From NCBI GenBank assembly GCA_963707215.1, contig CAVPPB010000003.1:1376001-1440000 (forward strand): 64,000 nucleotides of DNA. Reading direction: 5' to 3'. The notes under the pieces were generated by a model. It saw nothing but the letters and a program-made list of their open reading frames with translations. It had not been told where the DNA came from and did not search any database. This DNA is from an uncultured Chloroflexia bacterium (GTDB lineage: Bacteria > Chloroflexota > Limnocylindria > Limnocylindrales > CSP1-4). A program made the translations under genes and the position numbers. Positions 44,541-48,674 of this stretch are shown here, piece after piece. Numbering within the stretch: position 1 is the stretch's first letter; every line of letters starts with the position of its first letter.

Positions 44541-44768
44541 ATGACGACCGTCAACGTGCACGACGCCAAGACCCACTTCTCCGAGTTGCTGGCGCGCGTT
44601 CGACGAGGCGAGCGGATCGTCATCGCTCGGGCCGGGAAGCCCATCGCGATGCTCACGCCGCTGGATGAACCACGCGAGCGCCGGCGACCCGGGATGGATC
44701 GCGGTCGACTGGCCATCGGCGCCGACTTCGACGAACCGCTGCCGGGGTTCGAGGAACTGGGAGGTTGA
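44541..44768 (+). CDS. Phd/YefM family antitoxin
   Basis: VNVHDAKTHFSELLARV..GERIVIARAGKPIA. Confidence 0.92.
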   Translation: MTTVNVHDAKTHFSELLARVRRGERIVIARAGKPIAMLTPLDEPRERRRPGMDRGRLAIGADFDEPLPGFEELGG

Positions 44769-45151
44769 GGCTCCTCCTCGACACCCACTCCTACCTGTGG
44801 TGGACGATCGACGATCGCCGGCTGTCCGAACGGGCGCGGTCGGTCATCGAGGACGGCCGCAACGAGATCCTCGTGAGCGTCGCGTCCGCCTGGGAGCTCG
44901 CGATCAAGGCGACCCTTGGACGGATCACGACGCCAGAGCCGATCGATGACTTCCTCCCGGACAGCCTCGTTCGGAACGGGTTCCGGCCCCTCGCGATCGA
45001 GCTGCCTCACGCGCTCCGGGTCTCGCGTCTACCGATGATCCACGGTGATCCCTTCGATCGCCTGCTGATCGCCCAGGCATTGGTCGAGGACGTCCCGATC
45101 GTCACCTCCGACCCCGCGATCACCAGGTACGACGTGGAGACCATCTGGTGA
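44765..45151 (+). CDS. vapC: VapC PIN-domain toxin
   Basis: LLLDTH..LW, SVASAWELAIK, HGDPFDRLLIAQA, IVTSD. Confidence 0.92.
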   Translation: MRLLLDTHSYLWWTIDDRRLSERARSVIEDGRNEILVSVASAWELAIKATLGRITTPEPIDDFLPDSLVRNGFRPLAIELPHALRVSRLPMIHGDPFDRLLIAQALVEDVPIVTSDPAITRYDVETIW

Positions 45152-46020
45152 CCGAGAGCACGGAGCGTCGGACGCCTCGCTCGCGATCGACCCGAACGGG
45201 CAGGACCCGGTCTGCGCCTGCGAAGCGCCGAGCCCGCAAGCCGGCCGACCCCGGCAAGGCCTGGGCGAAGCGGCTCGAGCGGACCCGGCCCGGCCTGCTC
45301 GATGACACGCTGGCGGCGCTGGCGACCGTCCACGGCACGCCGACCTGGGAGCGCCGTCTCGACCCCACGAGCGAGCTGGTCCTGACGATCCTCTCGCAGA
45401 ACAGCGCCGACGTGAACGCCGAGAAGGCCTTCGAGTCGCTCCGGGCCGCCTACCCGTCCGACCGCCCGGCCGAGGAGCACAAGCCGGGCAAGGGCTGGGG
45501 CGGGGCCGGCCTGTCGACGGCGGCGCCGCCCGACTGGACGGCCGTCGAGAACGCCCCGCTGCCCGAGCTGGTCGAGGTCATCCGACCCGGCGGTCTCGCC
45601 CCCCAGAAGGCGCCCCGGATCCAGGCTGCGCTGCGGACCATCCGCGAGGCGCGGGGCGACCACTCGCTCGAGTTCCTGGCCGGGCTGCCGCCGCTGGAGG
45701 CCCGGGCCTGGCTCACCGCGATCGACGGGATCGGCAAGAAGACCGCCTCGGTGCTGCTGCTCTTCTGCTTCGGGACGCCGCTCATGCCGGTGGACCGCCA
45801 CGTCGAGCGGGTCTCGCACCGGATCGGCCTCATCCCGCCCAAGGCCGGAGCCGACGAGGCCCACGACCTCTACCTGGCGATGCTCCCCGGCGACCGGATG
45901 TACGAGACCCACGTCAACCTGATCCGCCATGGCCGGGTCACCTGCCACGCCCGCCGCCCGGCCTGCGACGCCTGCCCCATCCGGTCCCGCTGCCGCTTCT
46001 TCGACCGCAAGGCCCCGTAG
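45148..46020 (+). CDS. nth: endonuclease III (HhH-GPD, 4Fe-4S) DNA glycosylase
   Basis: LVLTILSQN, GIGKKTASVLL, PVDRHVERV, C-X6-C-X2-C-X5-C. Confidence 0.88.
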   Translation: MTESTERRTPRSRSTRTGRTRSAPAKRRARKPADPGKAWAKRLERTRPGLLDDTLAALATVHGTPTWERRLDPTSELVLTILSQNSADVNAEKAFESLRAAYPSDRPAEEHKPGKGWGGAGLSTAAPPDWTAVENAPLPELVEVIRPGGLAPQKAPRIQAALRTIREARGDHSLEFLAGLPPLEARAWLTAIDGIGKKTASVLLLFCFGTPLMPVDRHVERVSHRIGLIPPKAGADEAHDLYLAMLPGDRMYETHVNLIRHGRVTCHARRPACDACPIRSRCRFFDRKAP

Positions 46021-46064
46021 GGCCGGGGGGCGGTCGGATCGCGGACGGGAGGCGCCTCGGCCGC

Positions 46065-46397
46065 CGCCGCCGCGGCAGCCCGCGACTCGCCGCACCGGAT
46101 ATCGGCCGCTCCGATCGGATGGGCGGTCAGCGTGCATGGACGCCTGCCCACACGGTCGGCGCCGAGCGCACGTCACGCGTGCTGACCCCGCCCCGCATCG
46201 GCCTGACCGATACGGAGGCCCAGGATCGGCCGCCGCCGCGGCAGCCCGCGACTCGCCGCACCGGATATCGGCCGCTCCGATCGGATGGGCAGTCAGCGTG
46301 CATGGACGCCTGCCCACACGGTCGGCGCCGAGCGCACGTCACGCGTGCTGACCCCGCCCCGCATCGGCCTGACCGATACGGAGGCCCAGGATCGGCC
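46065..46397. repeat. 166-bp tandem duplication, each unit carrying a 111-bp palindromic element
   Basis: 46065-46230 matches 46231-46396 with one substitution; ATCGG-N5-CCGAT at 46101, 46197, 46267 and 46363. Confidence 0.92.
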
Positions 46398-46501
46398 ACT
46401 GCGGTGACCACACGGCATCGAGCGGAGTGCGCGAGCCTCGACGCGCCCGCCGCCAACGGCCCGTGGAGCGGCAGCGAAGCCCCGCACCGTAGAACGTCTC
46501 C

Positions 46502-47350
46502 GTGACGACGATCGAGCTGGACCCACGAGCAATCGGGCGGGCGATCAGGCACCTCCGGCGCACGGTCGGGTGGACCCAGGCCGAGCTCGCTCGACGGGCC
46601 GGCTCGTCCCAGGCTGCGATCTCGGACATCGAGCGCGGCAGGACCGGTCAGCTGGCATGTCGGACCGCCGCGAGGACGCTCGAGGCCCTGGGAGCGCGGG
46701 TGCTCCTGGCCGTGGATGCACCGTTCCTGGCCGACCGCGAGCACCAGCGGGACGCTGCCCATGCGAGGTGTGTCGCCTACACCGCCGGACGACTCGAACG
46801 GGCAGGCTGGGATGTCGCGACCGAGGTCGCCATCGGACGAGGCCGACCACGAGGCTGGATCGACGTCATGGGCCACCACCCGCAGACCGGCCTGGTCCTG
46901 GTGATCGAGATCAAGACGGAGCTGCACGACCTTGGTGCGGTCGACCGCCAGCTGCAGCGATACGAGGGGGTCGCCTGGGCCGCAGCCCGCGAGCGCGGGT
47001 GGCGGCCGAGAGGGGTGGCGGGTGCCCTGCTCGCGCTGGCCACGGATGCGGTCGACGAACGCGCCCGCGCGAACCGCGAGCTCTTGCGGCGATCGTTCCC
47101 GGGTCGCGCAGGCGAACTCGATCGCGTCATTCGTTCGGGCGGGCTCCCTCGCGATGGGCGACGGTTCATGGCCCTGATCGACCCGCTGTCGAGACGCTCG
47201 GTCTGGCTCCGACCGCTTCGAGTCGATGGCCGCCGAGCCGCCGCGCGGTACGCCGACTACGCATCGTTCATCCGGGCGCGCGCCGACCGAAGCCGCGCTG
47301 CGCGCCACGGCCGGCCGCCGGGCGGCACCGCGGGACGAGCGAGGGACTGA
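46502..47350 (+). CDS. XRE-type HTH plus PD-(D/E)XK nuclease-like protein
   Basis: IRHLRRTVGWTQAELARRAGSSQAAISDIERG; E..I...GWIDV......LVIEIKTEL.D......Q..Y. Confidence 0.8.
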   Translation: MTTIELDPRAIGRAIRHLRRTVGWTQAELARRAGSSQAAISDIERGRTGQLACRTAARTLEALGARVLLAVDAPFLADREHQRDAAHARCVAYTAGRLERAGWDVATEVAIGRGRPRGWIDVMGHHPQTGLVLVIEIKTELHDLGAVDRQLQRYEGVAWAAARERGWRPRGVAGALLALATDAVDERARANRELLRRSFPGRAGELDRVIRSGGLPRDGRRFMALIDPLSRRSVWLRPLRVDGRRAAARYADYASFIRARADRSRAARHGRPPGGTAGRARD

Positions 47351-47441
47351 TCGCGAGCCAGCGGGACCGCCGGATCCCTGGCCTCCTCGACCGACCGCCC
47401 TGATACCGGCCGCTGCTCGCCCGCCGCGCCGCCCCGGCCGC

Positions 47442-47498
47442 TGCTCGCCCGACCGGTCGCCGCTCGCCCGACCGGTCGCCGCTCGCCCGACCGATCGC
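47442..47498 (+). repeat. 19-bp tandem repeat x3
   Basis: (c/t)gctcgcccgaccg(g/a)tcgc at 47442, 47461 and 47480. Confidence 0.85.
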
Positions 47499-47505
47499 CG
47501 CCCGT

Positions 47506-47616
47506 ATCGGCAAGGCCGATGCCCCCGAGGCTCAGCGATCGTGAACGCGGCTTGAACGAGGCCGACCTGGCGCCCGAAGGAGCACACTGATCTCGCTTGG
47601 CATCGGGCGCACCGAT
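47506..47616. repeat. diverged inverted copy of the 111-bp palindromic element
   Basis: ATCGG-N5-CCGAT at 47506 and 47602 (96-bp spacing, as on the left side); TCAGC, CGTGA and GCAC.CTGA blocks in register with the reverse complement of 46101-46211. Confidence 0.8.
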
Positions 47617-47786
47617 ATCGCGCGCCTCGGCGGCCCCGCCCACGCACCGGACCATCGCGGCCTGCCACCCGCACCCACCGCGCCACCCGCACCGCCCCCC
47701 TACCGCGCCTCGGCGTCCGGCCCCGCGACCCGCCCCCGCACCCGGCCGCACCCGGCCGGGCCCGCGCCCGTCCCTATACTCGGGCC

Positions 47787-48674
47787 ATGCTGACCGGCGG
47801 CCCCACCGGCACCCGCGGCCCCGGCGAGAGGCCCACCCCGCCCCGCATCCTGCTCGTCGACGACGACCCCAACCTCCTCGTCCTGCTCGCCGAGCAGCTC
47901 CGCTCCGACGGCTACGAGGTCCAGACGGCCCGCGACGGCGAGGAGGCGCTTCGCCGGCTGCGCGGTGGCTGGCCCGACCTGCTCATCGTCGACATGATGA
48001 TGCCCCGCCTCGACGGCCTCTCCCTGGCCCGCGAGATCAAGGCCCAGGCCGACCTGCCGATCATCGTCCTCTCGGCCATCGACGCCGGCGACAGCAAGGC
48101 CGACCTGCTCGAGGAGTTCGCCGAGGACTACATCACCAAGCCGTACCACTACCCGGAGCTCCGGGCGCGGGTGAACCGGGTCCTGCGGCGGCTGGGCGAC
48201 AAGGTCCCTCGGGCCAGCCTCGTCCTGGGCCCGGACCTGACCCTCGAGCTCCACCGCAAGGTCGCCATCGTCCGGGGCGAGCCCGTCCAGCTGACGCCCA
48301 CCGAGTCGCGGCTGCTCTACGCCCTGGCGGCCAACCTCGGCCAGACCGTGCCCACCGACACGCTCCTCGCCCGCGGTTGGTCGGAGGCCGAGGACGCCGA
48401 GCCGTCGTACGTCTGGGTGACGATGCGTCGGCTTCGCCGCAAGGTCGAGGTCGACCCGGATCGCCCGGTCCACCTGCTGACGGTGCGGGGGATCGGCTAC
48501 CGGCTGGTCCGGGTCGAGGACGACCGAGCCGAGGACGACCGAGCCGCCGAGCCCGAGCCCGAGCGCCAGGCCGAGTCCGAGCCCGAGCGCCAGGCCGAAC
48601 CTGAGCGCCCACCCGAGGCCCAACGCCCGACCGCCACGCCGACCACGCGCCCTACCACCGAGCCGCCCGCGTGA
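47787..48674 (+). CDS. OmpR/KdpE-family response regulator
   Basis: ILLVDDDP, DLLIVDMMMPRLDG, DYITKP, LTPTESRLL, LRRKVEVDP...TVRGIGYR; repetitive low-complexity tail. Confidence 0.93.
   Translation: MLTGGPTGTRGPGERPTPPRILLVDDDPNLLVLLAEQLRSDGYEVQTARDGEEALRRLRGGWPDLLIVDMMMPRLDGLSLAREIKAQADLPIIVLSAIDAGDSKADLLEEFAEDYITKPYHYPELRARVNRVLRRLGDKVPRASLVLGPDLTLELHRKVAIVRGEPVQLTPTESRLLYALAANLGQTVPTDTLLARGWSEAEDAEPSYVWVTMRRLRRKVEVDPDRPVHLLTVRGIGYRLVRVEDDRAEDDRAAEPEPERQAESEPERQAEPERPPEAQRPTATPTTRPTTEPPA

Follow-up and report, generated by a model that had tools for sequence, protein, structure and literature searches.

A helix-turn-helix nuclease gene among paired palindromic elements in Limnocylindria: a candidate repeat-enzyme partnership

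Why is a single gene of a Chloroflexota bacterium bracketed by copies of a short palindromic element, and do the gene and the element belong together? This question is raised by a 64-kb stretch of contig CAVPPB010000003.1 (hereafter the window), which is part of a genome of 3.26 Mb with 72% G+C, present in 5 contigs and 85% complete (G000). The gene, here called p1, encodes a protein with an XRE-type helix-turn-helix (HTH) domain and a predicted PD-(D/E)XK nuclease-fold domain, and it is flanked by three copies of a 111-bp element. The answer that we consider probable is that p1 and the 111-bp elements form a cognate pair, in which the HTH-nuclease is sequence-specific and the dispersed elements are the double sites that it binds. 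In outline, this resembles the partnership of doublets of repetitive extragenic palindromes (REPs), known as REPINs, with the REP-associated tyrosine transposases (RAYTs). The locus is one case of a wider, apparently undescribed system in the Limnocylindria.

The three copies comprise two (L1 and L2) to the left of p1, one in each unit of a tandem duplication, and one (R) that is inverted on the right (Table 1). This anatomy had been described in a sequence-only reading of the window and was confirmed. The duplicated units are 95% identical, and in each 111-bp element the ATCGG-N5-CCGAT palindromes at the two ends start exactly 96 bp apart. Exactly six such palindromes, those of L1, L2 and R, are found in the window, where dinucleotide-preserving shuffles predict 0.30 and none of 100 shuffles reaches six. 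The inner motifs, which are GTCAGC and GCTGAC in the left copies, are located 10 nt from the nearest end palindrome in all three elements. The L and R copies have only the motif blocks in common (best arms 43 nt, 72% complementarity).

The element is also dispersed over the genome. G000 contains 22 exact ATCGG-N5-CCGAT sites, approximately the number that the window shuffle rate predicts for single sites, and 10 of these form pairs 95-96 bp apart. With one mismatch allowed (344 sites), the histogram of pair distances shows seven pairs at 96 bp and one or two at each other listed distance. An nhmmer profile built from 7 copies detected eight full-length copies (family 1; E <= 4.6e-19), followed by partial matches at 2e-4 and 8e-3, and revealed no longer element with these ends in G000. 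The family 1 consensus is TATCGG-N5-CCGATG-N8-GGTCAGCGAGCGTG ... CACGCTCGCTGACC-N8-CATCGG-N5-CCGATA, and the sequence varies freely in the N5 spacers and over the central ~35 bp. Three of the eight copies flank p1. The five solo copies are all intergenic, mostly 25-180 bp 3' of one gene and 5' of the next co-directional gene, and the genes beside them, which encode a UvrD-type helicase, a phosphotriesterase, an FAD oxidase, a hydrolase and a beta-eliminating lyase, are unrelated in function. The exact ATCGG pair pattern was found in none of 60 relatives. Five evenly spaced identical palindrome pairs with a 483-bp periodicity at C1:252840-254868 point to a long tandem repeat, which is probably inside a gene.

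The sequence-only reading had proposed a genome-wide search for such pairs and for paralogs of the gene, and the paralogs strengthen the association. Two are present in G000, both with 32% identity to p1: p2 (C2:451366-452034) and p3 (C3:582181-582864). A hypothesis-free scan of the genome for palindrome pairs with the same arms yielded a second family, ACCAG-N5-CTGGT, with a spacing of 94 bp and seven copies (family 2), one of which (C2:451254-451362) directly abuts the 3' end of p2. At 40 bp beyond one end of the family 2 elements is a third palindrome; their conserved outer flanks read TTCYTCGC, and GAGCGTG is present as an inner motif. Within one genome, p1 is thus found among three ATCGG copies and p2 against an ACCAG copy, each gene with its own family.

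A search for p1 homologs covered 24 genomes of the family and found 1-11 in each. The closest homologs in other genera have elements of like size and geometry on both sides, with other half-sites. In G016, the gene is flanked by GATGC-N7-GCATC pairs (spacings 96 and 96), in G014 by ATGAG-N5-CTCAT pairs (93 and 94), and in G019 by GATTA-N7-TAATC-like sites, one of which begins at the stop codon and has a partial partner 96 bp further. The 2.7-Mb genome of G016 contains 36 paired matches at up to two mismatches, one of which is the junction of two abutting copies, as compared to 0 for the reversed-pattern control; in G014, six pairs were found against 0 for the control. In both genomes, two of the matches flank the gene. 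Together with the eight and seven copies in G000, these counts make the elements far commoner than chance. A dispersed GATTA family in G019 was considered and dropped. As regards the other G016 copies, three elements at C1:73475-73777 are arranged head to tail and share end palindromes, which is reminiscent of arrays like those of bacterial interspersed mosaic elements, and several copies stand in pairs 1.5-3 kb apart, which may bracket further genes.

The association extends to public sequences. In 75 public loci with homologs, exact same-arm pairs gave 15 events at 94-96 bp against ~0.6 per distance bin, with tandem-array periodicities set aside. Locus L078, which has a long 29-bp array downstream of the homolog, was then dropped; a comparable short array is present in L015, as 29-bp repeats inside the upstream element. 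Among the remaining 74 loci and with up to one mismatch, 29 have a same-arm pair 93-97 bp apart within ~450 bp of the gene, as compared to 0-7 loci for six control spacings. Such pairs are found in 23 of 64 downstream flanks and 11 of 66 upstream flanks, and on both sides in 5 of 56 loci. An independent detector, which scores the likeness of the upstream to the downstream flank, places 21 of 59 loci beyond the 95th percentile of controls made from mismatched loci, and either of the two detectors is positive in 38 of the 74. A second spacing class of 106-107 bp (GATCA-N7, ATGAG-N5) is present in L030, L042 and L053, which explains a secondary peak at 106 in the histogram of exact pairs; no pairs were observed at 100-104 bp. 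Two loci (L028 and L048) have the same layout as the window, with a tandemly duplicated upstream element and one downstream copy, and the downstream element frequently starts at, or inside, the last codons of the homolog. Recognition-helix residues track the arms (QSM with TGATC, QTV with AGCAG and QSAI with GAGTC), a correlation that is confounded by relatedness.

What kind of protein accompanies these elements? The N-terminus of p1 matches Pfam HTH_31 (5.6e-9) and HTH_3 (2e-8), both above the curated cut-offs, in keeping with a five-helix HTH domain like that of lambda repressor, and Pfam reports no family beyond this XRE HTH. Sequence searches of NCBIfam, PADLOC and the PDB with p1 likewise matched only HTH domains similar to HipB, ClgR and controller (C) proteins. 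In the predicted structure, the N-terminal domain has its best matches at Z 10-11 in C.AhdI (VIA Z 11.2), ClgR (11.0), C.BclI and HipB. AlphaFold modelled the whole protein with a predicted local distance difference test (pLDDT) score of 91.0 and a predicted template modelling (pTM) score of 0.73, and the C-terminal 209 residues with a pLDDT of 91.0 and a pTM of 0.86. The C-terminal domain model has the topology helix, three strands, helix, strand. Its structural neighbours are Upx (Z 8.9, 117 aligned residues), NucS (Z 8.8, 104 aligned), XisH (Z 8.7, 119 aligned) and AF1548 (Z 8.4), with Can2, the FokI cleavage domain, McrC, Hjc and Vsr ranked lower; Foldseek places the endonuclease domain of the R2 retrotransposon and NucS/EndoMS first (E 2e-4 to 1e-3). 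These Z values (8.4-8.9) are modest. The model is nevertheless classed as a PD-(D/E)XK nuclease fold, since nearly all of the top 50 neighbours are PD-(D/E)XK nucleases and the catalytic motif is invariant: E108, G118, D121, E136 and K138 (an E...D...ExK signature) are unchanged in an alignment of 44 homologs, paralogs included, and the four acidic and lysine residues among them again in 35 C-domain sequences. In this assignment the domain has no close characterised relative, and metal-dependent phosphodiester hydrolysis is predicted. The XRE HTH and PD-(D/E)XK-like motif of the sequence-only reading are both present. The likeness to NucS/EndoMS, XisH and the R2 restriction-like endonuclease domain is at the level of the fold (13-21% identity). 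For NucS it covers the nuclease core only (model residues 13-156 to chain residues 126-233, Z 8.8, 21% identity), and p1 has an XRE HTH at its N-terminus where NucS has its own dimerisation and DNA-binding domain.

The family to which p1 belongs is large and poorly named. A word-indexed protein search gave 155 matches, of which the sole names are 'XRE-family transcriptional regulator' and 'helix-turn-helix domain-containing protein', and most of these homologs are located on 1-2-kb contigs. A profile search at E <= 1e-30 matched 630 clusters, formed at 50% identity. The record titles of related loci name Candidatus Limnocylindrales or Limnocylindria and other Chloroflexota metagenome-assembled genomes (MAGs). 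No match to p1 was found in phage records, and plasmid records gave HTH-level matches only, in 2 plasmids. Third-position G+C is 0.81-0.82 in three HTH-nuclease paralogs (window 46502-47350, 0.81; L007:4047-4925; L008:4271-5137) as compared to ~0.95 in their neighbours.

The part of the element that is under constraint can be read from closely related sequences. The congeneric genome G001, of which the endonuclease III is 90% identical to that of G000, contains three ACCAG elements, each of which has a G000 counterpart at the orthologous site; one of them abuts the p2 ortholog. In these three element pairs, none of the 90 arm nucleotides of the nine palindromes differs and the spacing is kept, as compared to 22 of 45 identical positions in the N5 spacers and 160 of 312 at the remaining positions (an ungapped count, with one pair 1 nt out of register over part of its length). 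The surrounding genes are 84-88% identical. Similarly, a metagenome strain ~97% identical in p1 has 20 differences over 46216-46327, none of which is in the arms (46267-71 and 46277-81) and one of which is in an N5 spacer. The sequence-only reading had proposed selection on geometry or structure and a fold of the whole element into a long hairpin. Single family 1 copies can indeed be drawn as such a hairpin (folding z -1.35 to -4.26), but RNAalifold on 35 of the 36 G016 copies retained only the invariant terminal pairs with a covariation term of 0.03, and an interior inverted-repeat z above 2 was obtained for only 14 of these 35 copies and for 1 of 7 and 3 of 7 copies in G000, where element interiors fold no better than shuffles. 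With no covariation and little interior self-complementarity, the long-hairpin or RNA reading was set aside as the main constraint, and the geometry part of the claim stands. The comparison points to selection on the half-sites and spacing of duplex DNA.

The spacing itself agrees with this. Half-site centres are 10-12 bp apart in the end palindromes, and operators of dimeric HTH proteins have half-site centres of like spacing; the HipB operator TATCC-N8-GGATA is of this form. At 10.5 bp per turn, the two preferred spacings would be close to 9 helical turns (94-96 bp) and 10 turns (106-107 bp), a difference of one turn. Taken together, the conservation of arms and spacing, the absence of hairpin covariation and the whole-turn spacing suggest recognition of the duplex by dimers, two of which would bridge the ends of an element.

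Comparison between genomes shows where the cassette of elements and gene is present and where it is not. The stop codon of endonuclease III is separated from the upstream region of the response regulator by ~15 bp in G001, as compared to 1741 bp in G000; this agrees with the earlier suggestion of an insertion between nth and a two-component system. G002, from another genus, has a 165-bp spacer without a gene at the same junction. On one metagenome contig, 46029 is connected to 47771 through the 15 letters that G001 has here, and other contigs of that run carry the gene; the contigs may come from different strains, so this junction is not evidence of excision. The closest homolog in G019 (52% identity) also lies between nth and the response-regulator gene, in reverse orientation, and that in G016 (48%) does not adjoin endonuclease III. 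G001 has no p1 ortholog, its sole homolog (35% identity) being the p2 ortholog, and it has no ATCGG pairs. At three solo-element sites, the spacers are 15-57 bp in G001 as compared to ~265 bp in G000. The solo site C3:1236616 was uninformative as a comparison, because its two flanks are on different G001 contigs. Judging from these genomes, the cassette is dispensable and movable, and it is the distribution of the elements that suggests their mobility. Half-sites differ between lineages, even for orthologous genes at one site (G000 and G019), and are the same throughout a genome; amplification within lineages is needed to account for this.

In the reading that we favour, each 5-N5-5 end palindrome would be bound by a dimer through the XRE-type HTH, with half-site centres 10 bp, or one helical turn, apart. 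As the palindromes are a whole number of turns apart, two dimers could sit on the same face of the duplex and bridge the element ends (94-96 bp, ~9 turns; in some lineages 106-107 bp, ~10 turns), where the PD-(D/E)XK domains may cut at or near the ends. Over evolution, the element would be copied to new intergenic sites and duplicated locally in tandem, and the element-gene-element cassette would be inverted, lost or gained. Such a restriction-endonuclease-like enzyme would read duplex DNA, unlike the HUH tyrosine enzyme, which reads single-stranded hairpins.

The comparison with REPIN-RAYT, which the sequence-only reading had drawn, is supported apart from the structured, long-hairpin part. 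None of the three refuting conditions that it had named, namely homologs that lack such flanks, elements no commoner than chance and a C-terminal domain without a nuclease fold, was borne out. REP doublets and their tyrosine transposases are described in two reports (Nunvar 2010, PMC2817692; Bertels and Rainey 2011, PMC3116915), and a conserved GTAG or CGTC tetranucleotide at the REP end in a third (PMC3733652). As in that system, short intergenic palindromes are dispersed as doublets of ~110 bp, the enzyme gene has its own repeats on its flanks, the gene copies of a genome are distinct and have one repeat family each, and repeat copies persist vertically at orthologous sites. In contrast to RAYT, a Y1/HUH enzyme related to IS200/IS605, the enzyme here combines an XRE HTH and a PD-(D/E)XK domain. 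The elements have dyad half-sites of a duplex type with free spacers and integral-turn spacing instead of a covarying hairpin, their ends are (G/C)NTATCGG and YACCAG without a GTAG or CGTC tag, and copy numbers are low (6-36) without a 'master sequence' of identical copies. Y1_Tnp (PF01797; RAYT/IS200) was detected in none of 41 family genomes including G000, all of which are incomplete MAGs; the same model detects matches in 6 of 14 control genomes. A literature search, with subscription journals outside its scope, returned no paper on repeats of Limnocylindria or on a link between REP-like repeats and a PD-(D/E)XK/HTH protein.

Several observations weigh against the cognate-pair reading. The three ACCAG copies that were retained at orthologous sites since the split of G000 and G001 fit conserved host sites and mobile DNA equally well. 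At the three solo sites, G001 lacks ~210-250 bp, which is more than the 111-bp element, and the boundaries are loose; neither a target-site duplication nor a sharp boundary was found at these G000/G001 sites or at the cassette, the intergenic DNA being too diverged to align. There are no near-identical dispersed copies, only the tandem pair L1 and L2 being alike. The 40-bp spacing of the third family 2 palindrome is not a whole number of helical turns. The flanks of p3 contain no repeated palindromes or elements, and G019 has no GATTA-N7-TAATC pairs genome-wide at up to two mismatches. Neither of the main detectors found repeats at 36 of the 74 public loci, among which are most of those with the closest homologs (L026-L039); ~9 of these 36 have same-arm palindromes on their flanks at other spacings, notably the 106-107 bp of L030, L042 and L053. 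Finally, strand transfer is not known for a PD-(D/E)XK hydrolase alone, and a copying mechanism must be postulated.

The main rival, which we regard as unlikely, is a regulator with operator arrays. The protein would mainly control transcription or shape the chromosome, the elements would be its autoregulatory and small-regulon operator pairs, which arose by ordinary duplication and are kept by host selection, and the nuclease fold would serve another role or oligomerisation only. This accounts for half-sites and spacing that are strictly kept at orthologous loci as all else decays, and for the lack of identical dispersed copies and target duplications. The HTH, moreover, is closest to that of HipB, ClgR and restriction-modification controller proteins, which bind dyad operators as dimers, often as paired operators, and looping repressors typically have operators spaced by integral helical turns. 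These proteins are ~70-120 amino acids long without a nuclease domain, and their operators are not dispersed repeat families. Against the rival, the elements are mostly located downstream of co-directional genes and not at promoters, next to genes unrelated in function, and none of the four catalytic residues varies among 44 sequences, paralogs included. The variation of half-sites between orthologous lineages, with uniformity in each genome, indicates turnover by amplification and not ancestral operators, and the 36 clustered and overlapping sites in the 2.7-Mb genome of G016 resemble the dynamics of a repeat family.

Alternatively, the elements could be ordinary repeats, similar to REPs or to miniature inverted-repeat transposable elements (MITEs), that are moved by another enzyme and accumulate beside the gene through insertion preference or tolerance, the protein being unrelated or a repressor. 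We give this little credence. According to an earlier report, small palindromic repeats often cluster and other mobile DNA often inserts in or beside them (PMC1525189), and about half of the homologs are without repeats. The elements also resemble MITEs derived from insertion sequences (IS) in being ~110-150 bp long, intergenic and dispersed, with terminal inverted symmetry, and in being present or absent between close genomes. In contrast to MITEs, the copies share motif blocks only, and the gene is flanked by whole elements and not by half-elements. No parent IS with a DDE transposase was seen, nor was a target-site duplication at the three solo sites compared, where the intergenic DNA is strongly diverged. 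The specific pairing of p1 with ATCGG and of p2 with ACCAG in one genome, the joint absence of p1 and the ATCGG family in G001, the recurrence of the pairing with other half-sites in many genera, the absence of RAYT from the 41 genomes and that of a longer parent element from G000 all argue against another enzyme.

Equally improbable is a selfish, homing- or restriction-like cassette, in which the nuclease cuts chromosomal sites (e.g., empty sites or foreign DNA), its flanking repeats serve as substrates for recombination or repair or as protected recognition sites, and the solo copies are scars of earlier cassettes: the presence or absence of the cassette at one site among close relatives, its inversion in G019, the lower third-position G+C of p1 and fold neighbours that include restriction enzymes, McrC, Can2/Card1 and R2 endonuclease domains would suit it, but the solo copies are complete two-palindrome elements and not cassette ends, phage records contain no match to the gene, those of plasmids match its HTH only, PADLOC shows no defence family beyond the HTH, and no methyltransferase or partner gene is conserved beside p1, p2 and p3, of which the neighbours differ at each. 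Integron attC-like cassette boundaries and resolvase res-like sites were considered as well and set aside; no recombinase is present beside any of these three genes.

We also put forward, tentatively, a bolder form of the cognate-pair reading. Limnocylindria would then have a second, independently evolved and long-lived repeat-enzyme partnership, in which the HTH-nuclease reads duplex dyads at both ends of a phase-locked 95- or 106-bp element, synapses the ends and, aided by the repair or replication of the host, makes copies of the element or moves it. A PD-(D/E)XK hydrolase would alone drive this transposition-like process, with enzyme specificity and half-sites co-evolving in each lineage.

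Table 1. Coordinates of the locus in the window and of element copies elsewhere in G000
Feature	Position	Strand	Basis or detail
Endonuclease III-like gene (nth; HhH-GPD, FeS), left neighbour	45148-46020	+	Pfam
Segment absent between nth and response-regulator gene in G001 and G002	46030-47770 (1741 bp)		blastn and alignment
Tandem duplication, two 166-bp units (46048-46213 and 46214-46379), one element each	46048-46379	+	95% identity
Element copy L1; core 46101-46211; palindromes 46101, 46197; GTCAGC 46126, GCTGAC 46181	46098-46214	-	nhmmer E 4e-21, profile better on - strand
Element copy L2; core 46267-46377; palindromes 46267, 46363; GTCAGC 46292, GCTGAC 46347	46264-46380	-	nhmmer E 1.6e-20
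p1 gene, 282 amino acids: XRE-type HTH (~residues 8-70), linker, predicted PD-(D/E)XK nuclease-fold domain (~residues 86-240), conserved C-terminal tail	46502-47350	+	Open reading frame (ORF), profiles, models
19-bp tandem repeat (CCGGTCGCCGCTCGCCCGA-like), 4-5 copies, between p1 stop codon and element R	47405-47502	+	Repeat families D2-D4
Element copy R, inverted relative to L1 and L2; core 47506-47616; palindromes 47506, 47602; CTCAGC 47531, ACTGAT 47586	47503-47619	+	nhmmer E 2.8e-21
OmpR-type response regulator, then histidine kinase, right neighbour	47787-48674	+	ORF and Pfam
Solo family 1 copies in G000	C1:142828, C1:533195, C1:792660, C2:268188, C3:1236616		nhmmer
Family 2 copies in G000	C1:545634, C1:763283, C1:811929, C2:451254, C2:456812, C3:1194851, C3:970369		Palindrome-pair scan

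The surroundings of the cassette have further features. Just upstream of endonuclease III are a Phd/YefM antitoxin gene (44541-44768) and a PIN-domain toxin gene (44765-45151); the interval at this position is 755 bp in G000 as compared to ~333 bp in G001 and G002, and the pair looks like another lineage-specific insertion. The C-terminal end of the response regulator (48520-48674) is an acidic, proline-rich repeat (AEPEPERQ-like) with a weak chance match to a trypanosome repeat family. No Rfam family matched 45900-47900 at E <= 1, and no consensus of a sigma-70-like promoter or intrinsic terminator was found in 45950-47850. A search of sequencing runs listed no RNA run for the window, and the best DNA runs carry up to 24% of the sampled words.

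To our knowledge, REP/REPIN-RAYT is so far the sole described case of a bacterial enzyme gene that lives with its own miniature repeat family. If the cognate-pair reading is true, repeat-enzyme partnerships arose more than once, here in a phylum in which no RAYT was found, and a restriction-endonuclease fold can fill the role of the repeat partner. The family would offer many natural pairs of enzyme and site of which the specificity can be read from genomes, with half-sites of 5-6 bp that differ between paralogs and a measurable spacing rule, and it may be a source of DNA-binding nucleases that are programmable by choice among family members. It would also account for a class of intergenic repeats that break the assemblies of uncultivated Chloroflexota, in line with the short contigs on which most homologs are found.

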